In this document: one piece after another, positions 2,015-20,000 of the stretch
Position numbering within the stretch: position 1 is the stretch's first letter
How the letters are laid out: every line of letters begins with the position of its first letter
NCBI GenBank assembly: GCA_001724265.1
Contig: MEDY01000114.1
Coordinates: 53,836-73,835 of the forward strand
Source: Rhizaria sp. SCN 62-66
Lineage: Eukaryota
DNA length: 20,000 nt
Direction of reading: 5' to 3'
Position numbers and translations under genes: made by a program
Notes under the pieces: generated by a model
Seen by the model: only the letters and a program-made list of their open reading frames with translations
What the model was told of the DNA's origin: nothing
The model's database searches: none

Positions 2015-2737
2015 ATGCTTGCTCGTACCCTCAAGCGCGTCTCCACCGCTGTCCCCGCGGTGTCGTCCGTCGCTGCGCGCACCTTCGCCTCCGGCGGCCA
2101 CCCTTCGATCAAGACCAACTACGCTGACCCCAAGCTCCAGGACTACTACGCGCAGACCGCGAAGCTCGGCGGTGTTGACCAGTACAACACCACTGACGGC
2201 CTTCTCGAGAAGAACATGCTCGACTCGTCCTACCCCGACACCCGCCCCATGCACTACATCGCCCTGAACTCCACCAAGGCCATGTACGCCGGCCTCGCCC
2301 GCGCCGGTGTGTGCAAGCTCGTCGCCCAGATGTCCGCCTCGGCCGACGTCCTCGCGCTCGCCTCGATCGAGGTCAACATCTCCGGCTTTGCCGAGGGCAC
2401 TAACACCACGGTCAAGTGGCGCGGCAAGCCCATCTTCATCAAGCACCGCACTCCCGCCGAGATCGCGCGCGCTAAGGAGGACGACAAGGCCGTGCTCCGC
2501 GACCAGGAGGCCGACTCTGCCCGCGTCGTCGACGACAAGTGGCTCATCGTCATCGGCATCTGCACCCACCTCGGCTGCGTCCCCATCCCCGGCGCCGGCG
2601 AGTACCCCGGTGGCTTCTTCTGCCCCTGCCACGGCTCCCACTACGACTCCTCGGGCCGCATCCGCAAGGGCCCCGCCCCGCTCAACCTCGAGGTCCCCGC
2701 CTACAAGATGAACGGCGACATGCTCACTATCGGCTAA
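2015..2737 (+). CDS. RIP1: Mitochondrial cytochrome bc1 complex Rieske iron-sulfur subunit, 240 aa, single coding exon
   Basis: Rieske boxes CTHLGC (2561-2578) and CPCHGS (2621-2638), [11 protein letters not shown] hinge, [14 protein letters not shown] and [15 protein letters not shown]. Arg/Ser/Ala-rich, acid-free N-terminus typical of a mitochondrial presequence. Confidence 0.98.
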
Positions 2738-3719: not shown

Positions 3720-4587
3720 TTACGCGGTCTCGTCGGCAGCCTTGACACGCGGAGCGGTGAGCGTGGCGCGCAGCTCGGCGGCGAAGAGCTCGGGCAGCGA
3801 CGCAACGAGCGCGTCCTGGTCCTTGATGTCGCCGGGGGGCAGCGCAACGGTGCCCTTCTTGGTGAGGGTGAGCAGCGTGCGCACGGGCGGCGCCAGGGCG
3901 GGCATCTCGGGCGTGGGGAACTGCTCCGCGGCCTCCTTGCCCTGCGCAGTAGCGATGAGCTTGGCGTAGATCTCGCTCGAGTCGAGCTTGGCAGTGTGCA
4001 GGACGGCGTTGGTGCCATCCGAGAAGATGGCGTTGATGCTCGACACGGCGTCGGGCGTCGACGTGCGCGTGACCTCGAACTCGGCAGTGGGGTTGTAGTA
4101 CTTGAACGACGGGAGACGGTTGCTTGTGAAGTGGCTGTGTGCCAGTGACGGGATGGAAGGAGAGCAAGGGAAGAGAATGCAGAATGCGATGTGGTGATGG
4201 GGTGAGAGGATGGTTTGTGCAAGTGGCGTAGAAGCGGGAGATGAAGCATGATGACAGCAAGAGTTTAAAAATCGGTAGAGAACATCGCACGGTTCAACAG
4301 CATAGTGCATGCATCGCGCTTCGTTGCTTGGCGAAGCTCACAGCGCTGGCGAGCGAGAGTAAAGGGAAGAGAGCGTACCGGAGGCCAGCGTGGTCCATGC
4401 CGTGCTTGGTGGTGGTGTTGATCTCGAACTTGATGACCTTGGGACAAATGGGCTCGAACATCTTCATGTGGGCAATGGTCAGGCCGCGGGACGCATTGAG
4501 GTTGAGCACGTTGCAGGGGTTACCGCGGACCTTGGCGACCTTCTTGGCGGCCACCTTGCCGGACTTCTTGATCACCTTGGCGGACAT
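3720..4587 (-). CDS. Probable mitochondrial ribosomal protein of the L51/S25/CI-B8 fold (mL61/Mrp49- or mS25-like), 207 aa, 2 exons
   Basis: Exons 4587-4379 and 4134-3720 join in phase 2 (CG|C) across a GTACGC...CACAG intron. The join gives HGMDHAGLRHFTSNRLPSFKYYNP, resembling the H-x-G-A-R-x-F...LP...Y-x-NP motif of Mrp49/MRPS25 (from memory). Lys-rich N-terminus; TAA stop. Confidence 0.7.
4135..4378 (-). other. Spliceosomal intron, 244 nt
   Basis: GTACGC donor at 4378, pyrimidine-rich 3' end, CAG acceptor at 4137-4135. Removal restores a conserved motif in frame. Confidence 0.85.
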
Positions 4588-5273: not shown

Positions 5274-5849
5274 ATGAGCTACCCGCACACGCAGCCGAGC
5301 CTTGCGTCGGCGATGAACACGTCTACCTCGTTTGAGCTGGACCCCAGCAACCGCGTGCGCTTCGCCCCCACGGACCAGGTCTACCCCATCCCGTCCGCGC
5401 TCAACGCCTCCTCCGTCAGCAACTCCAGCTTCAGCGGTGGCGGCGGCGGCGCGTACGGGGTAAACGCGAGTTACGGCGCCGCTGCGCTTCCCGTGCCGAC
5501 CGGCGCGCTTGCTCAGCAGCAGCAGCAGCCACAGGGCTACTACCCCGCCCCGCGTCCCCCGCTCCCTCTGTCCAACTCTGCGGCGACCGCGGGTATGCCG
5601 CCGGCGCTGACGCGGCCGCAGACTGGGCTGCTGCCGGTGCCCATCGGCATCATGGCGGCACCCTTTGCGCTCCCGGGCGCGGGACCGGTCCCCAACCCCG
5701 CCAAGGCGCCCCTGGCCTCGACCACGTACAACGCCAACGCAAACGCCAACTACAACAACTACAACATGCAGCCGCAGCCTCAGCCTCAGGCGCAGTATTA
5801 CTACAACCAGGCGCAGCCGCAGTATCCGCAGCAACAGCAGTATCCGTAG
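5274..5849 (+). CDS. Pro/Gln/Ala/Tyr-rich 191-aa ORF, in frame with and probably the N-terminal part of the downstream NPHP4-like gene
   Basis: ATG 5274 to TAG 5847-5849 with coding-like codon usage. The same frame stays open from 5850 to 11180. Confidence 0.55.
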   Translation: MSYPHTQPSLASAMNTSTSFELDPSNRVRFAPTDQVYPIPSALNASSVSNSSFSGGGGGAYGVNASYGAAALPVPTGALAQQQQQPQGYYPAPRPPLPLSNSAATAGMPPALTRPQTGLLPVPIGIMAAPFALPGAGPVPNPAKAPLASTTYNANANANYNNYNMQPQPQPQAQYYYNQAQPQYPQQQQYP

Positions 5850-5921
5850 CACCAGCAGCCGCAGCTGCTGCCCCAGCCCTCCGTCCCCGCGCCCCCCTCT
5901 GGCGGCAGTGGGGTGGTTGTC

Positions 5922-8900
5922 ATGGGGGGGCGCCTCGTGCGAGTGCCGGTGCCCGCAGGGGCAGTGGCGCTGCAGCAACAGCAGCAGCAGCAGCAGCAAC
6001 AGGCGATGGCTCAACAGCAAATGATGTGGCAACAGCAGCAGCAGCAACAACAACAACAACAACAGCTTCAACAACAGCAGCTGCAGCAGCAGCAGCAGCA
6101 GCAGCAGCAGTACTTACAGAATGTAAGTGACGTGTCTTTCATCGCCCCCGCCCCGGCCTCCGCGCCATGGGAGGCCGACGCCGCCGCGCCCAACGCCTTT
6201 GCTGACTCAGCCGCCGCCGCGGCTCACGGTCACTCTGCTGCAAAGCAGCAGGCGCACTACGTGGGGCCGGACGGGGCAGCGCTGTATAACGACAACAACC
6301 ACGGCAACACTAGCAGCGGAAACGACCCCGAGAATGAACCCACCGCCGGCGCCACCCGCGCCGTCTCCCTCTTCTCCAAACCTCAGGCGCAGTCGCACGC
6401 TCCGTCGAAACCGCCACCGCCGCCCGCATCCCGGACGGGCAACCCGTTCCACTCGCTGCACCAGGCGCTGCGCCCCGCGCTCACCGCGGTCGCGCCGATG
6501 CGGCTGCCGGCCGCGGCTATGGCGTTTCTGCGCCGCGCAGCCGCGCGCGCATTGCTGCCCGCGCCTTCCTTCGCCGCCGACGCCGCTACTATGGGCGGGG
6601 CGGGGGCCGCGGGCGCGCTCACGCCCTACTACCTGCACATTGACGCTGTGACCGGGCTGCGGCTCTTCAGCGCGATGCTCCGCGCCTCAGCCGCCACGGC
6701 AGCGACCAACTCCACTGCCGCGGGCGGCGCCGGCGCCACCGCCGCTGCGGCCGCGGCGGCGGGGGCGCTGCGGGGCACCCTTAAGCCGGAGTTTCTGTAC
6801 TGGCGGCTTAACTTGTCGCTCTACTCACAACGGCACCGCACCTTTTTCGGGCGCACCTGGGAGAGCGACGAGTACTGCGTCGCCACTTACCCAGAGGTGC
6901 TTACATCCCCGTCCCACACTGCAAGCCCTTACCCTGCGGTTGGCGGCCAGTTCGGCGCGGATGTAGGTACCCCCGGCGGCGATGTAAGCGCCCCGCCGCA
7001 CACGGCGCGCCTCCCGCCGATCGGCGTCTACTACTACAGCGACATCCACTCGTCGCAGTGCTTCGCCGTCGCCGAGGTCGTGCTCACGGTCCGCCTCCCC
7101 GGCGCTGCCCCCGCCAGCGTCGCGCTGGGCTGGGCCCCGCTGGCCGCCTTCGCACCCGTCGGCGGGCACGCCGGCGCCGGCCCCGCCACCGCGCTCCCGG
7201 GCGGCGCGCAGGCGGGCGGCTTCCCTTCAATGAGCGCCGGCGCTGGCGCTGAGGACCCCAACGCGAGCGCGCTGCTCGCCAACGCCGCGGGGGGCGCCGG
7301 GGGCGCGTTCGTGGGGTTCGGCGCGCTGCCTGACGTCGCTGACCACCTAGACACGATCTCTTACGCCGGCAACCGCGCCGCCGCCGCCTTCTCGGCCCTC
7401 AGCAGCAACGGCAACGCGAACGCGAGCCTGGACATGTCTTTCAACACCGGCGCGGCCGCGGGCGGTGGCGGCTTGGCTTCCGCGCCGCCGCGCATGACGA
7501 CTGTGCCCCTGTACCGCGGCTCTCCTCGCGCGTTGCTCTTCGCGCACAACCCGGTCCCGCGCGCGCTCAACTCGGGCGGCGGCGCGAACTTGGGCAGCTC
7601 CGCTCACCCCGTCGACGCCTACGGCAACCCCCTCCCGGGCGCCGGCGAGGTCATCGCCCTCAACAGCAACGGCGGCGGCGCGGCGCAGTCCGGCGCCGGC
7701 GGGGTGACTCTGGCGCAGCACGCGTCGTGGGACACGACGTTCCTGCACGCGCACGACATGCGGCTCAGCTTCCGCGTCTTCCGCTGCTCGGCGCTGCTGC
7801 GGGTTGCCCATCTGTTTCGGCCCAACGAGTTTGTCGCCGCCGACGGCTCCGCGCGGCTCGCGGGCCTGCCCCCCGTGCTCCAGCTCCACGCCCCCGCCCC
7901 CGCCCATAGCACTGAGGCGGGGGACGCCACCGCCGCCGCGTCTGCGCTGTCGCTGCTGCCTGGTGTGCTGCCGCCGCCGACGCACCTGGCGGCATTCGCG
8001 CGCGCCGTGCCGCTCACCCACCTGCGCGTGCGCGCGCCGCGGCTGGCGCTGCCGGCGCAGCTCGAGCCGCGGCTGCTGGCGGTGCTGCACCACCACCGCG
8101 CGCTGTTCGTCACCGCGCCCTCTGCGCGCGAGCGGCCCGTCGTCGTGGCGCGCGCGCTGCGCCTGGGGCTGCACAACGGCCGCCGCTTCGTGCACCTCCC
8201 CGCGCGCCTCCCGCTGACCGTGGCCGCGGCCAGCAGCGGCGACGTCGCGGGCACCGGCGCAGCCGCCTGGGACCCCGTGACCGTGAGCGCCGCGCGCAGC
8301 CGCGGAGACATCACGGCCCGCGGTAACGGACAGCAACAGGGACGGCTTAACTTCGAGAGCGAGCTCGCCAACGCGAATAACAACTTCAACAGCGGCGGCA
8401 GCGGCGGCATGGCGACTGCGCGCGGTCTGCGCGGCCCCGGCTCCGGCCTCGACAACCTCGCCGCTCTCGCGAGCGCTGCCGGCGCTAGCGCGGCCGGCGC
8501 CGCTGGTGCAGGCGCTGGCGCACTGCCAGTGGAGGACGGCGGCGTGGTCGCCGCTGCCGGCGCGTCCACATCGTTCCCTGCCTCGTACACCAATAGCGGG
8601 AACAGCAGCAATGGCGGGGGCGGCAGCATGGCGGACGGCAACTATTACGCCGACTCGCCCGCGCTCGACTTCAACACCGGCACGAACAATCCCTTGAATG
8701 GCCACGCTGTGACCGCGGCGGGCGGCGGGTTCACGGTGCTGCAGTGCGAGGGCGTCAACGCCGTGGTCGAGGGCGTGCGCTGCTCGCTGGCCGAGCCCGA
8801 GGCCGTGGCGCTCGTCGCCGAGCTTCAGTACGACGTCGCCTGGGTCGCCGAGGCCGCCGAGGTGAGCACTTACACGTCAAAGTACGGCGGCGCCGCGGGC

Positions 8901-9803
8901 GGCGCGGGCAACTCCAACGCGCTCATGGCCGCGGCGGCCGCGGGCGGGGCCTTAGGTGCCAGCGCCGCTCTGGCCGGCGGCGGCGGCGGCGGCGGCGAGG
9001 GCGAGACCGCGGGGGGCTACCCGGTAACGACCATCACGATCGCCTGGGGCATCCAGCTCATCACCACGCGCAACATGAATGCCAACACCAACCCTGGCTC
9101 TGGCGCGAGCTCTGGCGCTAGTTCTGGCGGTGTCAAGACGGGAGCCGGCCCGGTGTGCGTGGCGCTGCCGCTGGACGACTCTGTGGTCGACATCCCACTG
9201 CACCGCGGGCCCTGCCGCTCGCTGTCGGGCGCGCGCACCTACGGCTACTCGACGCTGTTCGAGGCGCTGCACCCGCTCGTCCGCCGCGGCGTTGTGCTGC
9301 GCGCAGCGTTTCAGTCGCCCGCGCACGCCGCCATCGCCGCCGCCGCCGCCGGGGAGCTGCCCGCGCCCGCGGCCGGCGCCGCTGCGACGCGTGACAGCGG
9401 CGATGGCGGCGACGGGGTGCCTGTGGGCAGCGAGGGTGCGTGGCAGGGCGCCGACGCCGACGGGCAGTACCGTGGCATTGCCGCGCTGCGCAAGCCCAAC
9501 AGCGCGGGCGACGACAACAACAACAACAACAACAAGAACAGCACTGTTGACAGTGCTCGGGCCAGTGGCAGTACTGGCGGTGTGTTGAAGGCTGCCGAGG
9601 TCGAGGTGGGCGCTGCGGCCGCGGCCGCACGCGCTCAGGCCGTTAGCGCTGCCCACGGCCACGGGTTGCAAATCGCGCTTGGCCCCGCCGCCGCGGCCGG
9701 GAACGGCGGCACGGTCACGCACGCGGCGAATAACAACGCTGCGAACGCGCTCGGGGCCAAGAGTGTCACGAAGACGCAGCGGCGCCGTCAACCGCAGGCA
9801 CAG

Positions 9804-9835
<32 letters not shown>

Positions 9836-11180
9836 ACAACAGCCGATGCAGCGGGGCGTGAGACTTGATGCCGGTAACAGCGGCAACAGCGGCGACGGCG
9901 GCGTGAACGACAGCATGCTGGGCGGCAATCTTTCTGGCATCTACCCCAATGTGCACAACAGCTACAGCAACGACAACAACTCGCTGCAGCTCTCCGCTGA
10001 CAACAACCGCAACCAACAGCAGCAGCAGCAGCAGCAGCAGCAGAACGCCAACAGCAGCAACCTGTGGCCCACGCCCAACACCAGCAGCGCCAACAACAAC
10101 AACAACAACGCCGCCGCCGCCGCTCCAGCCCCGATGGCTGCGCCCGCGTACTCGCACGTCCCCGTCCTGGCGGCCGACGCTGCCGCAGGCGGCAACACCA
10201 GCAGCAGCAACCCGCTTGGCGTGTCGTTCGCGGACGACCCCGTGAGCGCGCGCGGCACGGGGCAGACGGGCACGCACGCCTTTGCGTCGCGCGCGGCGCC
10301 GCTGTCGCTCACGGGCCGCCCGCAGCCGCCCGCGGCGCAGCTGTGGCCGAGCGCGGCCGTCGCGGGGGCGCTGCGGGCCGCGCTGTCGGCCGACAAGGCC
10401 ATCGCACCGCGCTGCGGGGAGCTTGTCTACTTTGAAGTGCTCTTCGCGAACCCGTTCCCGGTGCCGCTGCAGGTCGTCGCGCGCTTGGTGGACCCCGCGT
10501 GGAGCCGCGACTCGCTGCGCCAGGTCCAGCAGGCGCTACGCGACCTCGCGAACACGCCCAACGGCGCCGACGCCGCCGCGAACGCGAGCAGGTTCAGCAG
10601 CGTCGTCGGCGGCACCAACGGCGACGTCGCGAGCGTGCGCGCGGCGCTGGAGCGGCGCGAGCTGCTGCTGGAGCCGCAGCTGACGGTGGTCACCGACACG
10701 ACAGAGGCGACCAAGCTGCGCGCGCAGTTCGGCATCGCGGCCTCGGGCGCCGTGGCCGCCGCCGCGGGGGCCAGTCAGAGCGCGCGCGCGCGGGCCGGAG
10801 CTGCGGCCGCGGCCTCGGCCAACGCCACCGTCGACCTCACCGACGCGAGCGCCAACAACGCCAACGCCAGGAGCAGCTACTATGACAGCGCGCTGGCGAG
10901 CACCGCGGGCGCTGCGTCGGTGCCGTTAGCGCAGTGCGCGATGGTGCGCGAGCGCAGCGGCGGCGCGCTGGCGCAAATGCTGTCCGAGACGGCGCAGTGC
11001 TTCACGCTGCCGCTGCAGGCGCAGCAGACCGTGGCCGTGCCGCTGTGCTTCTTCGCGCCGGGCAAGACGGAGCGGCCGGAGCAGGAGTGCCCCGTGCCGC
11101 GCATCATTACCGTCACGCTCAGCAACACCGCGGGCGAGGCCCTCGCGCGGCTTAACCTCGAGGTCGCGCGGCAGTTCTAA
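5922..11180 (+). CDS. NPHP4: Nephrocystin-4-like ciliary transition-zone protein with large low-complexity insertions (first ATG after the TAG is 5922; start may be 5274)
   Basis: Collinear blocks resembling NPHP4 (from memory): WRLNLSLYSQRHRTFFGRTW (6801-6860), VYYYSDIHSSQCFAVAEVV, ALGWAPL, PLYRGSPRALL, AHLFRPNEFV, LRLGLHNGRRFV, ALVAELQY, GELVYFEVLFANP, LTVVTDTTE, LQAQQTVAVPLCF, RIITVTL...LARLNLEV. No intron needed; TAA stop. Confidence 0.8.
5973..6110 (+). repeat. Interrupted CAG/CAA trinucleotide tract encoding poly-Gln
   Basis: Directly visible. Further CAG/CAA runs lie near 9801-9842 and 10017-10043, and AAC (poly-Asn) runs near 9514-9533 and 10092-10109. Confidence 0.95.
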
Positions 11181-11489
11181 AGCGCTGCACTGTTGATGAT
11201 TAATTGAATGATGATTTACAGAATATAGAGTACTTTTGCAACGAATACATTAGTTTAACCTTTTCAGCATCTCAGTCAACAGAGTTATCAATACGAAGCC
11301 ACGTTCACAAAGTATGTTAGCCACGCTGCGTATGTTGCCCAAGAAAGATGTTAATAGAAAGAGTTGATGTATTATTTTTTCACATGTGACCGTAACAACA
11401 ATAAAAAGAAAGGTAATAAGAGAAAACAAAAAACAAAACAAAACAACAATTCTTCATTGGTTTTGCTCAATTGATCATTCGCTCCTTGT

Positions 11490-12835
11490 TTACTTCTTCT
11501 TCTGCTGCTGCGCGAGGACGTTCTTGATGTCCTCAGCGGCGACCTCCTCGTCCGACTTGGTCGTGCTGCGGATCTTGTTGTCGGCGTACGGGTACTCGAT
11601 GGGCGTGTAGGGGATGTTCATGCGCTTGAAGACGGCCTCCATCGTCTCGGGCCACGCCTCGTCGAAGGCGCGGATGGGGTAGTAGCCCACGTCGTTGCGC
11701 AGGTTGTCGACGTTGAAGTAGCGGTGCATCGACACCATCTTGACAACGAACGGGTTCAGCTTCATCGGCTTGCCCAGCACCTTGCCCAGCGCGAGCGCGG
11801 CGTAGGCCGCCGGGTACAGCAGGCACGTGTTGATGTTGAACTTGTTGAGCAGCGAGACGTAGCCCGCCGAGCGGCAAGCCCAGTCGAGCGCGCCCCACAT
11901 GTACTGCGCGCCGCCGTCGGTGACGATGTAGTACTTGCCGGCTGCCTTGCTCGTGTGGCTCGCGATGGCGTTGTAAGCGAGGATGTGCGCGTGTGCGCAG
12001 TTGTCCGTGTGCGTGAACGAGATGAGGTTCTGGCCGGTGCCGAGCACGCGCAGCAGACCCGAGCGCGCCGTCTCCATGAAGCTGGGCAGGAACAGGCGGT
12101 CCGCGGGGCCGTAAACCTGGTGCGGGCCGATGCAGATAGTGGTGAGCGCGGCGCAGTTTTGCTCGAGCACGTAGCGCTCGCCCATGGCCTTGGTCGTGGC
12201 GTACTCCTGCAGGTGCACGAACGTGCGCGGGTCGGGCAGCTCCTCCTCGCGCTTGTCGAAGATGTCCTCGCCGCGCATGCGGGTCGAGGGCGAAGAAGTC
12301 ATCACGAGGCGGGGCACGCCGGCGGCCTTGCAGGCGGAGTGGACAGAGATGGCGCCCTAGAGACAAGAAGCAAGAGGATGAATTGAGGGATATATCGATA
12401 GTATGTGAGCAATTAGTCGTAAAATTGAATTATTATGCACGTGAATCATTCATTAATACAAATAATATCTCAATCAAACATGAGCACATAAGCATGTTAG
12501 ACCGTATCAAGATAAAAGCTTTTGTGACGTACCTGGTGGTTGACCTTCTCGTAGAGGGGCTTGGGGTAGTAGGGCCCAACGAGCGCGGCGACGTGGAAGA
12601 CGCCCTCAATGTCCTTGCAGAGCTCGGTCATCTTGGGCGTGTCGCAAATGTCAGCGATGGTGTACTCGATCTTGGCGGCACCCTCCTTGCCGAGCAGGGC
12701 GACGTGGCGCGCCTTAATCTCCTCGGGGCAGGGCGTCACGTCGACCGAGATGACGCGCTCGCAGCCGCGCTGCACGAGCATCGAGCACAAGCGCTCGCCG
12801 ACGAGACCGGAGCCGCCGGTGACGAGGGCCGTCTT
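11490..12835 (-). other. ERG26: C-terminal extended-SDR 3beta-hydroxysteroid dehydrogenase/decarboxylase domain of the fusion
   Basis: TGGSGLVG (starts 12820), VFHVAA, TSSPS, catalytic YATTK (12203-12189), PHQVYGPAD, ISFTHTDNCAHAHILA, GKYYIVTD and DVGYYP, all typical of NSDHL/ERG26. Confidence 0.8.
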
Positions 12836-13687
12836 GGGCGCGTCGCGCAGCGCCATGGCCTTAGCGTAGGCGGCCTTGCAGGCGGGGACCGTGGAGTACT
12901 CGGGGGTGGGCGGGCGCGGGTACGAGAGATAGTCGACCGAGGGGTTGGACCAGTGGACGTAGGTGCCGAAGAGCACGTCCCAGAACTGGGTGTAGGCGGC
13001 GTAGTTGCACGTGAGCAGGCGGTGGTGGGTATCGTGCTCGCGGTTGTCGTAGAGGTAGCCCTTGCCGAGCATGACGACGAAGCGCGTGTGGTTGAGCGCG
13101 GAGAAGAGTGTGATGGCGCCCAGGAAGATTAGCACGGTGATGATGTGCGAGGGAACGACCCAGATGGCGAAGAGGTGGAGGTAGGCGCCGATCCAGAACT
13201 CGATGGGGTGCGTGTTGATGGCGTCATCATTGCCGTACTGCGGCGCACGCTGCTTGTGGTGGTGCTTATGGACAAAGCCGTAGAACTGGCGCATGTGCAG
13301 GATGCGGTGGAACTGGGCGTAGAAAAGGTCGTAGACGAGGAAGAGCAGGGGAAGCGCGATGATGGTGTTAAAGATGGTCATCTCGGACATCTTCCAGTAG
13401 ACGCCCTTGCCCGCCGAGTGCCAGCAGTACTGGAACAGGTGGTAGTTGAACACGCCGGTGCCGATCTTGTTGGTCCAGATGTAGATCCAGTCCCAGGTGC
13501 CGCGCTCCCAGATGAGCTTGCCACCCGGGGGGATGCGGGTGCGGTCCCTGGACTCGAGAACGAAGACGATCCAGGACAGGATTTCCAGGGTGACGATGTT
13601 CATGATGTTGTATAGCACCACCTGGCCCCACGTCCAGTTGGAGAAGCTGTCGAGGAAAAACACAGGCACGTCCGCTGACACCGTCAT
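11490..13687 (-). CDS. Fusion protein, 673 aa, 2 exons: fatty-acid-hydroxylase/sterol-desaturase superfamily domain (C4-methyl oxidase ERG25/SMO-like) plus 3beta-HSD/C4-decarboxylase (ERG26/NSDHL-like)
   Basis: Exons 13687-12533 and 12356-11490 join in phase 0, giving EKVNHQ|GAISVHSACKAAGVPRLVMTSSPS. The His boxes and the Rossmann motif both lie in exon 1 in one uninterrupted frame. TAA stop. Confidence 0.9.
12357..12532 (-). other. Spliceosomal intron, 176 nt
   Basis: CAG|GTACGT donor, AT-rich body, pyrimidine tract ending CTAG. Removal restores the SDR frame. Confidence 0.92.
12940..13687 (-). other. N-terminal membrane di-iron His-box domain of the fusion (approximate C-terminal boundary)
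   Basis: HRILH (13309-13295), HKHHH (13270-13256), HPIE, LNHT, HDTHH (13036-13022), NYAAYTQFWDVLFGT and several hydrophobic segments. Confidence 0.9.
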
Positions 13688-14551
13688 GTTGTCTCCTAAG
13701 CAATACAGCAGACGAGGCAAGGGCACATGGCAAAGAGCGCGAGTGGGTAGGAGGAAGAAATGAGCATGGGGTAGAGTGAATTTGCGGGTCGGCACGATAT
13801 TAAGTGGCGCAAAGCAAGTGCGAACGCTTGCACCTGGCAGAAGCCATCGTGTTTCACGCGGGGTAAAGCCACGGCATGGGGAAAAAGCGTGCGCTATGGC
13901 GGCAGAAAGCATTAAGAAGAGCCCGCGAAGGCCCAGTTACTCCACTTTCAAAGCAATGCCAGAAAGCGCGCGAACTCATATTTCGCGCGAAATCAAACGT
14001 CAACGTGTGGTTAAAAATTAAGTACGGAAGTAAATGCCATAATGCTAATTTCCCCTCGCAAATTCAGCTCTATAGAACCTTTGCTTGTGTGCTTCCGAAC
14101 TATATCGCCGGTCTCGCCGGTCGCCTTTCTCACGTGGCTGCCGTCGTTCTCCCGTCGTGTCCCGAGGCTCCCGGCGGTCGGTCAGAAACAGACCAACTGA
14201 CTTGACTTTGAGTGACCGTGAGCGAGCGAGCCAGTCGGCCGACGGCCGCTGTCTCTGCCTCGGGCGCTCGACTCGCTCGGGCGTGGTGGTGAGTCTTCCA
14301 AAACGAGATACACGACTTGTAATTCTCAGTGATACACGAATGCTTATGGATTTAAAATGAGTTTTTCGGGTAGTTCCATCTCTGTTGTTTTTTCTCATTC
14401 ATAAATACGCTTGCGCGCGTTTGTTTAAACGTCGTAGTATTTAACGCGTGAAATCACGTGCTTTACCGCCTCCAAACCCACGCCACCTGCTGACTTCTCA
14501 CTTCGTTTTTGTTATTTCATTCTTGCTCTTTTGCTTAGCTTTCATAGCACA
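13688..14551. promoter_or_regulatory. Divergent intergenic region (putative bidirectional promoter and 5' leaders) between the sterol fusion gene and CYP51
   Basis: 864 bp between head-to-head ATGs. Contains CACGTG at 14131 and 14455, GATACACGA at 14307 and 14331, and GAAACACGA on the minus strand at 13855-13847. Confidence 0.55.
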
Positions 14552-16795
14552 ATGGTGCCTCTGGAGGCTAGCTCCTGCTCGCTTTGCGCGGTTGCGGGTT
14601 TCTTTCTTGGTACGTGTCATTTTTGTCTTCTTAACACTTGGTTCACCCCCGCACCCACCTGCTCGCGGCGCCGTTTCTCTATCTTCCGCACTTCGCTTTC
14701 GTCAACATGACCACCCTATATCCTTCCGAAATTCCTTCCAATACTGCCCTCATCCTTGTTTGTCTCTTCTCAATTGCCTTGCACTTCCACGCACTTAGAG
14801 CACTATGTTCTGACGTTCTTTTTCGTCGTCCTGCCCCTTGCGTGGACGCTCTACACGGCCGACTACACGACCGCGAAGCTTCCCCCTCGCTTCTACTACC
14901 TCTTCGACGCTCTGAGCGGCAAGTACAACCTTGAGAAGAACGGCCCCGTCGACTTCATCCGCGCCGGTTACGACAAGCACGGCCCCTGCTTCCGCATCAA
15001 GGTCGCCAACAAGGGCATCACGTTCCTCATTGGTCCCAAGGGCAACGAGTTCTTCTACAACACCAGCGACAAGATCCTCACTGCGCGCGAGGTCTACCAC
15101 TTCACCGTTCCCGTCTTTGGCCGCAACATCGTCTATGACGCGCCCCTGCCCCTGATGCAGCGCCAGCTCTCCTTCCTGCGCCACGCGCTCAACGGCAAGA
15201 ACATGCAGACCTACGTCGACAAGGTCCTCATGGAGTGCGACCTCTACTTCAAGTCCTACGCCGCCACGGGCACCATTGACCTCCACAAGGAGTTCTCCGC
15301 GCTCATCATCAACACCGCGTCCCGCTGCCTCATGGGCGACGAGGTCCGTGAGACCCTCCACAAGGAGGTCGCCGACCAGTACGAGCTCCTCAATGACGGC
15401 ATGACCCGGTACGTTCCCCGTTTTGTACCGCATATAGCTCTACCATATTGCACAATACTCGCAATTTAACTATGTATAGTATGTATTTTTCTATTTATAA
15501 TCGATATGTCGACATTTTGGCTTGCATCGCGCTTATATTCTTTCTCTGCGTTCCTTTATTGTTGTTTTTTTAGCCTCTCGATCCTGTTCCCCTACGCCCC
15601 CATCGCCGCGCACAAGAAGCGCGACGCCGCCCGCCGCGAGATGGTCCGCCTGTTCGACCCCATTATCTCCAACCGCCGCGCCCGCAAGGAGCGTGGCGAG
15701 GACAACGCTCAGGACTTCCTCCAGGTACGGCCGAGAAGAAAACAAAAAGAATGCAATGATGACACCATGACACCAACAGCAATGTTGATAATTTTGTGGC
15801 TTATATCATGCGTTACAAAGAGAAAATGGGTGCATAATGTGTTGTTTTTTTTTATTTGTTGCTTTAACTTTGTTATTCCTTTCTGTATGTCAATCTCTCA
15901 CAATGTCCCTCTTGTTTCTTATTTGTTTCTGTCACTGCAGGAGCTCGTCGACTGCCGCTACGAGAACCGTCGTGAGCTGACGACCGACGAGATCGTCGGC
16001 CTGCTTATCGCCTGCCTCTTCGCCGGCCAGCACACGTCCAACATCACCGCGACCTGGCTCGGCGTGCTCATCGCCGCGCACAAGGACAAGATCCTCCCCC
16101 GTCTCCTCCAGGAGCAGAAGGACATCCTCGGGTACGCTCCAGCACCACCGAAAGATTACTTATAAGAGGATAGTTTAATGAATTAATAACTTTTTTCAGC
16201 ACACTATTATATTTTAAACTCAAGTGACTCACATATACGTTTTGATATTTGTCTCTACTTGTGCAGCCCCGACTTCAAGGACGGCGACGAGCTCCCCTAC
16301 GAGGCCGTGCAGCAGATGTCCCTGCTTCACTTCGCGATCAAGGAGGCGCTGCGTCTCTTCCCCCCCATCGTCGTCATGATGCGCACCGTGCAGGAGCCCC
16401 AGTACTTCAACGGCTACACGATCCCCGTGGGCGACATCGTCGTCGCCTCCCCGGCCGTGTCGCACCGCCTCGAGGACGTGTTCAAGAACCCGACTGAGTT
16501 CGACCCTGACCGCTTCCTGCCCCCGCGCGGCGAGGGCGAGGACATCATCGACGACGCCGGCAACATCACCAAGCAGTGGTCCTATATCGCCTTCGGTGAG
16601 GGCCGCCACCAGTGCATCGGCCGCGACTTCGCCTTCCTCCAGGTCAAGACCATCTACTCGTACCTGTTCCGCCACTTCGACTGGGACCTGGCCGGCAAGT
16701 ACGTTGGCAAGCAGAACTTCGACACCCTCGTCGCCGGCCCCGGCTGCGACTGCAAGGTCAACTACAAGCGCATCGACAACAAGGCCAACAAGTAA
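14552..16795 (+). CDS. CYP51: Sterol 14alpha-demethylase, cytochrome P450 family 51, 512 aa, 5 exons
   Basis: Exons 14552-14609, 14799-15408, 15574-15724, 15941-16131 and 16267-16795 total 1539 nt with all phases matching. N-terminal membrane anchor, YHFTVPVFGRNIVYD, TASRCLMG, FAGQHTS (I-helix), KEALR (ExxR), FDPDRF and the heme motif FGEGRHQCIG (16592-16621). Confidence 0.97.
14610..14798 (+). other. CYP51 intron 1, 189 nt
   Basis: GTACGT...CTTAG; phase-1 join G|AG gives FFLEHYVL. Confidence 0.8.
15409..15573 (+). other. CYP51 intron 2, 165 nt
   Basis: GTACGT...TTTTAG; phase-2 join gives DGMTRLSILFPY. Confidence 0.92.
15725..15940 (+). other. CYP51 intron 3, 216 nt, no in-frame stop
   Basis: CAG|GTACGG...CTGCAG; AT-rich; phase-0 join gives DFLQELVDCRY. 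Confidence 0.9.
16132..16266 (+). other. CYP51 intron 4, 135 nt
   Basis: GTACGC...GTGCAG; phase-2 join gives EQKDILGPDFK. Confidence 0.92.
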
Positions 16796-17423: not shown

Positions 17424-20000
17424 TCAGACGTAGGCCGTGCGCGCGAGCGTGGCGCCGCGGCCCGCCCCGCCGACGCCCGCGACGGCAACGGTGCGACCCG
17501 TGGCGGCCTCGACGCCCGCGCCGGGGCCGGGTCGCCATAGCACGCCAACGCCCGAGTACGCGCCGCTGCCGCCCACGCCCGTCACAGCGCCGGCACCACC
17601 AGCAGCGCCAGCGCCAGCGCCAGCGCCAGCGTCGGGGTTGGTGCGGGTAAGACGCCACTGCAACCGGCCCTGCTGCTGTGGCTGCGGCTGGTCGTGAGGG
17701 CCTTGTTGCTGCAGATGCGCCGTGTGCTTTGCGTGCAGACTGCTGTTGACACTGGCATGGTGCTGCTCACGGTCACGCGCAGCCGTCGCCGCCGCCACCG
17801 CGGCCGCCGCAACGACGCCGCCCGCCGAGCTGTGCGCACTGCCAGCGCTCGAGGCGGGAACGAGCACGTGCTGGTACCCCTCCGAGAGCAGCGTCGGCGG
17901 CGGCGGGCGCAAGAACGGCGGCAGCGGCGCATCGCTAACGCCGGCGCGGCCGGAGCGCGGGTATGGCCCGCTGGGCGGCAGAAACACGCGCAGCGACGCG
18001 GGGAGCGCGCCGCCGTCTGAGGAGACACTTACATTGCGCGCCGACTGGTGAGGGTTCAGGCGGGCCGGCAGCGTTGAGGATAACGACGACGCGCTGCCAC
18101 CACTTTGACTCCTGCCATTGCCATTGCCATAGCCATTGCTAGCGGTGTTCATGAGTGTGGGCGTGGGCATCTGCGCCGCGACGGCGACTGCGGGCGCGGG
18201 CCGCACCGAAGCCGGCAGGTGTACTGGCATCAGGCGGCCGCCGCTGATGGCCGTCAGCGTCGCGTTGCTGCTACAGCCGCCACTGCTGCTCACAGTCACC
18301 GCGCCCGCGCTGCTCACAGTCACCCCACCGCAGCCGCTGCTACCAGAGCTCATAGCGCCAGTGTAATTGTTGTTGTTCAGAGAGAGCGAGGCGGGCACCG
18401 AGTACGCCGACGGCCGCGACGCCGCTGCCGCCGCGCCCAGCACAACAGGCACCGGCCGCGCGACGGCGGAGCCCGCCGCAGCGGGAGCGCACACCGGGGT
18501 GCAGCTGACCGTGAGCGCCTGGCTGCGCGCTAAAGACTGCGCCAGCGACTGCGCGAGAGACTGGGAGCGCCTCGTAGTCGGCGTAGCGTTGGCGTTAGTG
18601 TTACTGGGACTGTGCGCTGGCAGAGGGTCGCTGAGGAGCCCGACGGCAGTGGCGCTGAGCTTCGCCGCGATATACGCGTCCGCGTCCGCGATCCCGCTTA
18701 CATCCTCAGCACTTAGCCCGCTGCCACTGCCTGTCGCGCTCGCCTTGCTGCAGGCGTTACCGCGCTCGGTCGCCCTCGCCCGCGCCTGCGCGCCGGCCGA
18801 CGCGAGCGCGTCGCGGCGGCGCAGCGCCTCGGCCCGCACGCGCGCCGCCGTCGTCAGGGACACTGCGCAACCGCGGAACAGCGCGCGCGCGACCAGCGCG
18901 AACGAGGGCTCCAGAAAGAAGTTAGGCCGCAGCAAGCTGCTGTTAAGCCGCTGCTGCGCCGGGGACTGTGTCGCAGCAAACGAGAGCACCCCAGACTGCG
19001 TCTGCGAGCTCTGCTGCTGCTGGCCGTGCTGCGCGAGCGCCGAGGGCGTAAGCAGGCCAAGGTCTATGGCGACCGCGGTGGCCACGTCAGCGAGCACGCT
19101 GCTGGTGTTGCCGCTAACGCTGACCGCGAGCCCCAGTCCGGCTCTGGCGGCGCTGTAGCGGCTGTGGCCCTCGTAGTCGGCCGCCAGTGCGCGCGCCAGC
19201 TGCTCCGCGGGCGTGCCCACCGAGACGCCGCTCGCGGGGACGGGCGCGCTGAGACTGCCGCCGGTGGCCGCGAGGCCGGGGCCGGGGACGCCTGAGCGCG
19301 CCGCGTCCCATGCCAGCAGCACGGCGAGCCGGCGCTCGCCTGCGGCCACCGCAGAGCCCGCCTTTGCATCCGCGACCGTGCCTTCTAAGGGGTCGCTAAG
19401 ATCGGTGACGGCGACGACGTCCTCGACGGCGGCGAGCAGGGCCGGGAACATCAGGCGCGCCGCCGCGGCGACGGCGACGGGGAGCAGCGCATTGCGCAGT
19501 GAGCTGTGCAGAGTGACCGTGAGCACCAGAGGCGTGAGGTAGTGTGGCACCAGGGCCAGGTCGGGGGCCGAAAAATACAGACCGTTAGCCGGCGAAAAAG
19601 ACTTAACGCCGGCTGTCGCAGTCTCCACCGCACGAATAGCATTGTTGTTATTTGGTTGCGAGCCCGCGCCCTTGGCCTCAAGCGCTTGAGCTGGAAGCGG
19701 GGCCTGCGGGAGCACGGGCCAGTTGAGCGGCAGCGGCACCGCGCCGGGCTGCGTCGCCGCAACCGAGCCGCCCACGCCCACGCCGGCGCCGCCACTCAAC
19801 CCTGCCTGGAGGCCGAGACAGAGCCCCGGGGTGCTGAAACTGGGGGCGCTCAGACTGGCGCCCCAGCCTAGACTGCTGTCGCTAGCCAGGCGCGGCAGCG
19901 GCGCGGGCGCGGGCGCCGCGGCGGCTGCGGCCGCGGCCTCCGCCGCCGCCGCCAGGGCCGCCGCGCTGGCCGCAGCCGCAGCCGTGGCCGCAGCCTGCGC
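17424..20000 (-). CDS. Hypothetical Ala/Gly/Ser-rich protein, 5'-partial (start lies beyond the window)
   Basis: The frame of ORF 17424..19799 stays open to base 20000 (AQAAATAAAA...LQAGLSGG). It ends at TGA 17426-17424 close to the GC-to-AT transition. Same low-complexity style as the NPHP4-like gene; no family recognised. Confidence 0.7.
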   Translation of the reverse strand, partial: AQAAATAAAAASAAALAAAAEAAAAAAAAPAPAPLPRLASDSSLGWGASLSAPSFSTPGLCLGLQAGLSGGAGVGVGGSVAATQPGAVPLPLNWPVLPQAPLPAQALEAKGAGSQPNNNNAIRAVETATAGVKSFSPANGLYFSAPDLALVPHYLTPLVLTVTLHSSLRNALLPVAVAAAARLMFPALLAAVEDVVAVTDLSDPLEGTVADAKAGSAVAAGERRLAVLLAWDAARSGVPGPGLAATGGSLSAPVPASGVSVGTPAEQLARALAADYEGHSRYSAARAGLGLAVSVSGNTSSVLADVATAVAIDLGLLTPSALAQHGQQQQSSQTQSGVLSFAATQSPAQQRLNSSLLRPNFFLEPSFALVARALFRGCAVSLTTAARVRAEALRRRDALASAGAQARARATERGNACSKASATGSGSGLSAEDVSGIADADAYIAAKLSATAVGLLSDPLPAHSPSNTNANATPTTRRSQSLAQSLAQSLARSQALTVSCTPVCAPAAAGSAVARPVPVVLGAAAAASRPSAYSVPASLSLNNNNYTGAMSSGSSGCGGVTVSSAGAVTVSSSGGCSSNATLTAISGGRLMPVHLPASVRPAPAVAVAAQMPTPTLMNTASNGYGNGNGRSQSGGSASSLSSTLPARLNPHQSARNVSVSSDGGALPASLRVFLPPSGPYPRSGRAGVSDAPLPPFLRPPPPTLLSEGYQHVLVPASSAGSAHSSAGGVVAAAAVAAATAARDREQHHASVNSSLHAKHTAHLQQQGPHDQPQPQQQGRLQWRLTRTNPDAGAGAGAGAAGGAGAVTGVGGSGAYSGVGVLWRPGPGAGVEAATGRTVAVAGVGGAGRGATLARTAYV

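Follow-up and report, generated by a model that had tools for sequence, protein, structure and literature searches.

The window analysed here, a 20,000-nucleotide stretch of contig MEDY01000114.1 from Rhizaria sp. SCN 62-66, carries on its minus strand, at 11490..13687, a two-exon gene (13687..12533, 12356..11490) for a single polypeptide of 673 amino acids (aa). In this protein, an oxygenase domain of the fatty acid hydroxylase (FAH) superfamily is fused to a short-chain dehydrogenase/reductase (SDR) of the 3Beta_HSD family, whose closest solved relative is human NSDHL. The fusion is conserved among eukaryotes, and in the window the gene lies head-to-head with a CYP51 gene. The product is probably a compact sterol-trimming enzyme, the oxygenase half of which is not the textbook one.

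A fusion carried by one exon

Exon 1 (12533..13687, minus strand; 385 codons) forms a single open frame from the ATG at 13687..13685 to a GT donor at 12532, and holds the start codon, the entire FA_hydroxylase domain, a linker and the N-terminal portion of the SDR with its Rossmann fold. Exon 2 (11490..12356, minus strand) adds 288 codons (12356..11493) for the portion of the SDR that serves catalysis and substrate binding, and ends in a TAA stop at 11492..11490. The two are separated by a 176-nt intron in phase 0 (12357..12532, minus strand; GTACGT...CTCTAG), with a GC content of 0.33 versus 0.62 and 0.65 in the flanking exons. Because the linker lies within one uninterrupted exon, the fusion of FAH domain, linker and SDR start does not depend on the splice model, just as the original prediction had argued, and the elements that it had named (FHRILH, HKHHH, HDTHH, the Pro/Ala-rich linker and TGGSGLVG) are all found in the exon 1 translation.

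The splice itself is supported in three ways. Besides the GT..AG boundary in phase 0, a cDNA-library contig of run X2 matches as far as 12532 and then goes on with 12 letters equal to 12344..12355, at the start of exon 2. Furthermore, two colinear orthologs do without the intron: in locus L002 (protein P0014) the exon 1 match runs up to 1249 and the exon 2 match starts from 1253 in read-through, while L003 (protein P0003) is one single open reading frame (ORF). The two exon products (P0001 for exon 1, P0002 for exon 2) each served as their own reference and were kept apart throughout, and an alignment of 18 rows shows that no residues are lost at their junction. Contigs of the polyA RNA run X1 cover 11608-11876, 11957-12272, 12573-12816 and 13226-13531, and thereby parts of both halves. 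There is a very slim chance that two adjoining genes were taken for one, or that the assembly is chimeric. Although none of the RNA contigs compared with the window spans the FAH-SDR linker, this boundary is located inside the unbroken exon 1, DNA contigs of run X6 tile the fusion-gene region, and about 17 independent homologs share the architecture, among them intronless ORFs located on contigs 132,779 and 9,491 bases long. One contig each in X1 and X6 matches just the pieces 11777-11794 and 12312-12337, which are separated by 24 unlike letters and flanked by unlike sequence; these contigs probably stem from a related SDR gene, be it of this organism or of another, and not from a splice form.

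Among the matches listed, the FAH-SDR fusion is kept in about 17 eukaryotic proteins. A word-indexed search of longer proteins found PF04116 and PF01073 together in all 6 matches, and at similar length in 6 of 10, the other four being three proteins with an FAH domain alone and the read-through model of the window itself. An exhaustive search yielded 1450 representatives at E <= 1e-3 and 75 at E <= 1e-30, with more fusions among the best 150 of the 1450. Named sources are EukProt Guttulinopsis vulgaris (62% identity to exon 1), plus one unnamed NCBI record, and over the 17 aligned fusion rows the identity to exon 1 falls as low as 34%. In these rows, ten His columns are all His, except for one Ser in P0025, and the Asp at the end of beta-2 is present in 17/17 and the glycine motif TGxxGxxG in 16/17; in the other fusion rows, the catalytic Tyr is kept in 16/16 and the Lys in 15/16.

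The two families also occur in the opposite order. In the protein P0026 of Dracoamoeba jomungandri, 3Beta_HSD (7-267) precedes FA_hydroxylase (486-617), and compared with the ortholog P0003 its SDR is 39% identical (2e-71) and its FAH domain 37% identical (8e-47), which makes these the same two families. A first tree, of 105 near-complete FAH domains from a quick search (nine near-duplicates and all partial domains being left out), placed 20 rows in one clade with a support of 99 in the Shimodaira-Hasegawa-like approximate likelihood ratio test (SH-aLRT); these were 16 full or partial fusions and four apparently truncated rows. A more careful tree, built from 44 rows chosen by hand and with two remote bacterial-type proteins as its root, recovered the family as monophyletic (100/100), with the main fusions as a group of eight (93/85) nested among stand-alone proteins, whereas the FAH domain of P0026, with its reversed order, groups with a pair of stand-alone proteins (95/97). 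All fusions were united in 0 of 200 bootstrap trees. Taken at the level of these sequences, this suggests that the FAH and SDR families were joined more than once.

A further fusion type deserves separate mention. The protein P0008 in locus L006 (9950-12478), and likewise P0023, P0169 and P0027, is paralog-like and 39% identical to exon 1 of the window, and the contig names of L006 and L003 have a prefix in common. Its FAH His columns are intact and its SDR is degenerate, with TGxxGxxG changed into TQAASPLG, the catalytic Lys into Val, and large insertions; from its sequence, the SDR fold appears to have been kept as an inactive module.

The oxygenase and dehydrogenase halves

The N-terminal half matches FA_hydroxylase (PF04116) over residues 114-242 (12962..13348, minus strand; 1.9e-17, 64.4 bits at a Pfam cut-off of 31, profile 3-132 of 132). 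It contains three His boxes, all on the minus strand: HRILH at 13295..13309 (H127-H131, with H127/H131), HKHHH at 13256..13270 (H140-H144, with H140/H143/H144) and HDTHH at 13022..13036 (H218-H222, with H218/H221/H222). These fit the di-iron ligand pattern of the FAH superfamily (HX3-4H, HX2-3HH, HX2-3HH), and together with a further His, H200, they make nine that are invariant across 44 family members (alignment A3). An AlphaFold2 (AF2) model of residues 1-262 has a predicted local distance difference test score (pLDDT) of 91.5 and long helices at 20-43, 64-90, 105-130 and 161-198. Among solved folds, it comes closest to the hydroxylase domain of Scs7p (4zr1_B; rmsd 5.8, 179 aligned residues, 14% identity) with a Z of 5.6, the next family having a Z of 3.5, where Z < 8 is weak for helical models. 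By sequence, the domain matched none of the solved chains, its profile matching His-tags only. The 40-aa linker that follows (residues 245-285; 12833..12955, minus strand) is Pro/Ala-rich and ends in DAPK. In the AF2 model of the ortholog P0003 (pLDDT 88.6, whole-protein predicted template modelling score 0.81), ten-residue blocks over 241-270 have a mean pLDDT of 82, 80 and 96 and a helix spans 263-274, and this ordered linker suggests that the two halves are held in a fixed arrangement.

So what kind of oxygenase is this? The original prediction called the domain ERG25-like on the basis of HPIE, HDxHH and NYA, and set these motifs against an ERG3 pattern that includes NYG. Motif counts over 212 collected proteins, nearly all of them members of the N-domain family, do not support the ERG25 assignment. 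NYA is present in 47/212 and NYG[QHT] in 83/212, the closest fusions having NYAAY, more distant fusions NYGQY, and Bigelowiella NYAQY, so that NYA versus NYG varies within one and the same clade and fails there as a criterion. The third His region of ERG25, SMO and CH25H is of the type HSGY(D/N)FPW, and ERG3 carries an HPxDG motif; HSGY (as H[SC]GY) occurs in 0 of the 212 proteins, and so does HPxDG. In its place, NHT[RK] is found in 150/212, with LNHTRF in the window.

Names given to the relatives are unspecific. Neither the search at similar length, nor the profile search, nor the cluster look-ups brought up a named SMO among relatives of the N-domain. The profile search, in a set of 5.8 billion proteins, gave 10 matches of which none has an informative name, the 26 clusters looked up carry no specific enzyme name, just 'sterol desaturase/sphingolipid hydroxylase' and 'fatty acid hydroxylase domain-containing protein', and Atlas lists only generic FAH clusters. 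Scans for exact patterns matched 18 stretches for the FAH domain and 44 for the SDR in prokaryote species genomes, and 135 in IMG/VR, 0 of which were confirmed; the metagenome scan confirmed 258 relatives out of 275 pattern matches. The ORFs round 13 stand-alone FAH genes carry eukaryotic families (HSF, DNA polymerase delta, SUI1), and judged by its sequences the N-domain family is eukaryotic. Stand-alone members of the clade include XP_002181276.1 of Phaeodactylum tricornutum (36% identical to the window, 4e-45), Bigna1 90045 of Bigelowiella natans (33% identical to the window) and a protein of the diplonemid Namystynia karyoxenos. We would accordingly describe the oxygenase half as a member of a separate, putatively protist-specific FAH clade and not as a canonical ERG25; this clade might be the AltSQE family.

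A recurrent arrangement was seen around some of the stand-alone genes. In L041, L056 and L079 the FAH gene is followed by a classical adh_short SDR on the opposite strand, which is not of the 3beta-HSD type, and then by an HSF-type factor. The upstream neighbour is an MTR4-like helicase in L056 and L079, and a prenyltransferase-family ORF in L041. The HSF neighbours suggest that these are stramenopile contigs. Over 13 loci with stand-alone FAH genes, none of 92 out of 156 listed ORFs matches 3Beta_HSD or p450, so that no NSDHL-type or CYP51 gene is visibly grouped with these FAH genes.

The C-terminal half is an intact SDR of the 3beta-HSD family, as had been predicted. The Pfam profile 3Beta_HSD (PF01073) matches exon 1 over its positions 1-77 (33.8 bits) and exon 2 over 97-252 (81.2 bits, 8.3e-23), and the two exons therefore complete one SDR. 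The NAD-binding motif TGxxGxxG is present as TGGSGLVG (T290-G297; 12797..12820, minus strand) and the codon of Asp316, at the end of beta-2, lies at 12740..12742 (minus strand). Exon 2, on the same strand, contributes the catalytic residues S406/S407, Y437 (12201..12203) and K441 (12189..12191), in full-length numbering, the latter two within YATTK. Exon 2 alone already has human NSDHL (6jkg) as its best solved chain, at 1.6e-20. The complete SDR of P0003 matches NSDHL at 1.5e-35 and 126 bits (about 38% identity over 192 aligned residues, counted by hand), with the next family at 62.6 bits, and the SDR of P0026 does so at 2.6e-39 and 138 bits, with the next family at 46.6 bits and its beta-2 Asp aligned with the Asp of NSDHL. 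NSDHL is thus the best solved chain by a wide margin, and that this half is NSDHL-like is well supported. Orthology with ERG26 is nevertheless not proven, as the PDB matches listed include no other close chain of the 3beta-HSD type.

In SDRs, an acidic residue at the end of beta-2 favours NAD+ over NADPH. The conserved Asp316 thus favours a preference of the fused SDR for NAD+, which would leave the need for a separate NADPH-dependent ketoreductase. As such, the proposal that the protein could be a complete demethylase, reducing the 3-ketone as well, finds no support, with this Asp kept in all 17 fusion rows.

CYP51 next door and the candidate functions

The earlier prediction did not take in the neighbouring gene, which strengthens the case for a role in sterol synthesis. 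On the plus strand, at 14795..16795, a CYP51 gene is oriented head-to-head with the fusion gene, as identified by Pfam p450 and by matches to solved chains. It has at least three introns, and its coding blocks (up to 15408; 15574..15724; ~15941..16131; ~16280..16792; stop at 16793..16795) are all in one reading frame. The first block lacks a start codon, and an upstream exon is therefore likely. The 55 best chains for the N-terminal part and the 56 best chains for the heme-binding part are all CYP51, the best being 6q2c, 'obtusifoliol 14-alpha-demethylase' (2.3e-34 and 7.5e-36), and the heme loop FGEGRHQCIG is present. Its first intron (15409..15573) is seen spliced, from 15408 to 15574, in a polyA contig of run X1. 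Between the two genes lies a divergent intergenic region of ~1.1 kb (13688..14794, GC 0.52), which is a candidate shared promoter. Run X1 has no depth in the bins 13722..15079, which is not evidence of absence. CYP51 was looked for in 80 loci of the metagenome scan, and is present in L001, which is 100% identical to the window, as well as in L003, where an intronless CYP51 (5828..7276, minus strand) faces an intronless fusion gene (9995..12043, plus strand) that is 67% identical to ours.

The window holds other open frames as well. At 2015-2737 (plus strand) lies the Rieske subunit of the mitochondrial cytochrome bc1 complex (1.6e-59 to 9f5x), unrelated to the fusion gene, and at 3720-4337 (minus strand) a weak L51_S25_CI-B8 match just under cut-off; both resemble ordinary nuclear genes that encode proteins of the mitochondrion. 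A 1776-codon open frame at 5850-11180 (plus strand), with poly-Q, poly-N, Ala and Gly runs and a GC content of up to 0.75, stops 310 bases short of the fusion gene's 3' end, and has a sub-threshold TFIIA match (18.3 bits versus a cut-off of 36.2) as its sole Pfam match. Lastly, an 858-codon open frame at 17424-20000 (minus strand) runs off the end of the window and matches no Pfam family at E <= 0.01.

Of all parts of sterol synthesis in eukaryotes, C4 demethylation is the least conserved, and to our knowledge ERG27 is confined to fungi and vertebrates. Kinetoplastids are reported to use a P450 for this step instead (PMC11528044). In the canonical route, a sterol methyl oxidase (SMO), an NAD+-dependent decarboxylase and an NADPH-dependent ketoreductase are described as acting consecutively while tethered by ERG28, with ERG26/NSDHL working directly on the product of the oxidase (PMC6385002). 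Desmond and Gribaldo (PMC2817430) report canonical ERG25 and ERG28 as not found in several protists that do make sterols, and a non-canonical oxidase is therefore to be expected there. With a di-iron oxygenase and an NSDHL-type SDR joined in both orders, and located beside CYP51, a module of oxidase and decarboxylase is the simplest reading. We tentatively favour such a non-canonical C4-methyl oxidase fused to a C4 decarboxylase, at somewhat less than an even chance.

If so, the gene would encode a bifunctional enzyme of sterol biosynthesis in the endoplasmic reticulum membrane of a heterotrophic protist. Its N-terminal half would be a four-helix membrane di-iron oxygenase of a protist-specific FAH clade, and its C-terminal half an NAD+-preferring 3beta-hydroxysteroid dehydrogenase of the NSDHL/ERG26 type. 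Fed by an external electron donor such as cytochrome b5, the oxygenase would turn the 4-alpha-methyl group of the sterol stepwise into a carboxylate, after which the tethered SDR, with Ser406/407, Tyr437 and Lys441, would oxidise the 3beta-hydroxyl, and the beta-keto acid formed would shed CO2. A separate NADPH-dependent ketoreductase would still be required to finish the reaction. The covalent link would take the place of the ERG28 tether and might allow channelling, and the upstream region in common with CYP51, which acts at a neighbouring demethylation step, could provide co-regulation.

One can take this further, to a reading that we find possible but on the doubtful side. The whole protist FAH clade may be an unrecognised family of sterol C4-methyl oxidases, supplying the missing ERG25 where canonical ERG25 and ERG28 were not found, with the repeated fusion to an NSDHL-type SDR in both orders acting as a Rosetta stone for its function. 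The fusion would then be a scaffold-free module co-regulated with CYP51, and the dead-SDR paralog of the L006 type an SMO2-like second oxidase, docking on the active fusion through its SDR fold.

Several findings weigh against an oxidase-decarboxylase module. By its motif and by the names of its relatives, the oxygenase half is no canonical ERG25, with neither the HSGY motif nor a named SMO among its relatives. A tree in which the FAH domains of all fusions form one clade is not rejected by the approximately unbiased (AU) test (log-likelihood 13.5 lower, p 0.244), and the independence of the fusions therefore rests mainly on their opposite domain order. Of the three other fusion loci in which the upstream sequence extends to 2.9 kb or more, just one was found to have CYP51 (L003, and not L004 with 2.9 kb or L006 with 10 kb), L002, L005 and L007 being uninformative with < 150 bases upstream. 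Moreover, the window and L003 are related (67-72% identity), and the pairing with CYP51 may thus amount to a single evolutionary observation. Tools other than the comparison with solved chains label the SDR generically: the nearest named clusters in Atlas are generic bacterial 3beta-HSD/epimerase, the matches that Foldseek lists for the full-length model are generic extended SDRs, and the best NCBIfam matches are of the OleD type and far under their cut-off. Finally, Phaeodactylum is reported to have an annotated methylsterol monooxygenase and ERG26 as well (PMC12168105); with clade members in both Phaeodactylum and Bigelowiella, from both of which AltSQE has been reported, the clade may do something else.

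That something else could be squalene epoxidation. The alternative squalene epoxidase AltSQE, which takes the place of ERG1 in diatoms, Bigelowiella and others, was reportedly described by Pollier et al. in 2019, and if the N-domain were an ortholog of it, the protein would join two non-consecutive enzymes, AltSQE and the C4 decarboxylase, for co-expression or assembly and not for channelling; the diatom IDI-SQS fusion is an example of non-consecutive sterol enzymes joined in this manner. The Phaeodactylum clade member XP_002181276.1 is probably not Phatr3_J45494, going by how JGI identifiers and accessions run along the chromosomes. Phatr3_J45494 is the AltSQE of this diatom (PMC12168105). 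The functionally validated AltSQEs, which are reported to complement yeast erg1, further include those of Thalassiosira, Fragilariopsis, Guillardia, Bigelowiella, Symbiodinium and Salpingoeca. AltSQE is described as a protist enzyme of the FAH superfamily with nine conserved His, present in both Phaeodactylum and Bigelowiella (PMC10174431, PMC8172173, PMC10864609), and the clade of our N-domain holds stand-alone proteins of both species. It likewise has nine invariant His, a trait not specific to AltSQE, and it appears to be protist-only, given that no prokaryote or viral relative was confirmed in the exact-pattern scans and that the 26 clusters carry no specific enzyme name. In addition, the fusions are nested among stand-alone proteins in the rooted trees, and Guttulinopsis, the nearest named source of a fusion, is a cercozoan, from the phylum of Bigelowiella. 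On the other hand, diatom AltSQEs are said to resemble the plant C5-desaturase DWARF7 (PMC7060231), while the HPxDG motif of ERG3-type enzymes is absent from all 212 proteins. Furthermore, oxidosqualene is no substrate for an SDR, and a joining of these two families in either order is more readily explained if the enzymes pass on a substrate to each other. We therefore regard a fusion of AltSQE with ERG26 as unlikely, though it is the main rival.

Another modification of sterols or steroids, in which the oxygenase desaturates or hydroxylates the ring or side chain (e.g. an ERG3-like C5 desaturation) and the SDR acts as a 3beta-HSD, possibly with isomerase activity, to give 3-keto steroids without decarboxylation, strikes us as rather improbable. 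Ciliate FAH enzymes are indeed reported to perform C5, C22 and C24 sterol reactions (PMC8172173), the 3Beta_HSD family by its Pfam name takes in enzymes that do not decarboxylate, and the C-terminal NYGQY..WD..FGT of most clade members resembles that of ERG3/STE1. However, HPxDG is lacking here as well, NSDHL is the sole close solved relative of the SDRs of both P0003 and P0026, and having CYP51 as a neighbour suggests the core stage of demethylation. Leaving sterols altogether, the pair could be a hydroxylase with an OleD-like reductase of beta-keto or beta-hydroxy acids, or an aldehyde-forming or decarbonylating hydrocarbon pair, for which plant CER1/CER3 offers an architectural parallel. 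This would fit with the best NCBIfam matches of exon 2, which are 2-alkyl-3-oxoalkanoate reductases of the OleD type (NF042422 and NF042423, 5.7e-33 and 6.9e-32), with the generic bacterial clusters in Atlas, and with the inclusion of NAD_binding_4 in the precomputed Pfam lists of fusion proteins. It should be noted, however, that the OleD-type scores are 111.1 and 114.4 bits versus a cut-off of 580, for a scoring that took in exon 2 alone (288 of about 390 SDR residues). Asp316 argues for NAD+ as opposed to the NADPH used by OleD, NSDHL is the best solved match, and CYP51 is adjacent in two species, all of which makes non-sterol lipid chemistry a highly improbable explanation.

Novelty and comparison with known systems

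No description of an FAH-3betaHSD, ERG25-ERG26 or AltSQE-SDR fusion was found in the main texts of the literature searched, and neither 'fusion' nor 'fused' occurs anywhere in PMC2817430. The architecture, which had been put forward as possibly novel, may be new as a described entity, but not as a sequence, with about 17 homologs already in public collections under no specific enzyme name. What is new here is the head-to-head arrangement of CYP51 and the fusion gene, a pair that is also present at the locus of the 67%-identical ortholog. A non-canonical di-iron oxygenase fused to an NSDHL-type decarboxylase beside CYP51 is a concrete candidate for the missing oxidase of C4 demethylation. Should the oxygenase turn out to be AltSQE, the fusion would, unexpectedly, tie the first oxygenation step physically to the machinery of C4 demethylation. 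Either way, having one polypeptide could ease the engineering of sterol demethylation.

Among known enzymes, NSDHL/ERG26 is likewise an extended SDR of the 3Beta_HSD family with TGxxGxxG, the beta-2 Asp and Ser/Tyr/Lys. The known enzymes are, however, stand-alone and tethered by ERG28, whereas the SDR described here, for which decarboxylation is predicted from sequence, is fused to a membrane oxygenase. ERG25, SMO1, SMO2 and MSMO1 share with the N-terminal half the PF04116 superfamily, the His boxes HX3H, HX2HH and HX2HH, and the nature of a membrane di-iron enzyme. The N-domain differs from them in belonging to a separate clade and in having LNHTR where ERG25, SMO and CH25H have HSGY(D/N)FPW. 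As the enzyme acting immediately upstream, ERG25 would be the natural partner of ERG26 (PMC6385002). AltSQE is also a sterol enzyme of the FAH superfamily that is restricted to protists and has nine conserved His (PMC10174431), but it is described as stand-alone, and the parts of the AltSQE literature that were searched make no mention of an SDR fusion.

The ERG25-ERG26-ERG27-ERG28 complex of yeast, mammals and plants resembles the fusion in that oxidase and decarboxylase are consecutive and physically held together; in the fusion this would be achieved by a covalent link, with no separate tether and no ketoreductase domain. The bacterial SdmA/SdmB system has two components as well, with an SDR-type enzyme following an oxygenase. 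Yet SdmA is a Rieske oxygenase and not an FAH enzyme, and SdmB is reported to both decarboxylate and reduce (PMC6385002), while the fused SDR shows no sign of ketone reduction. Scs7p/FA2H, lastly, combines cytochrome b5 with an FAH domain, and its hydroxylase domain is the best, if weak, structural match of our N-domain model. At 14% identity, it acts on the acyl chain of sphingolipids, and its fused partner is an electron donor, whereas in the protein of the window the partner would be the next enzyme of the pathway.

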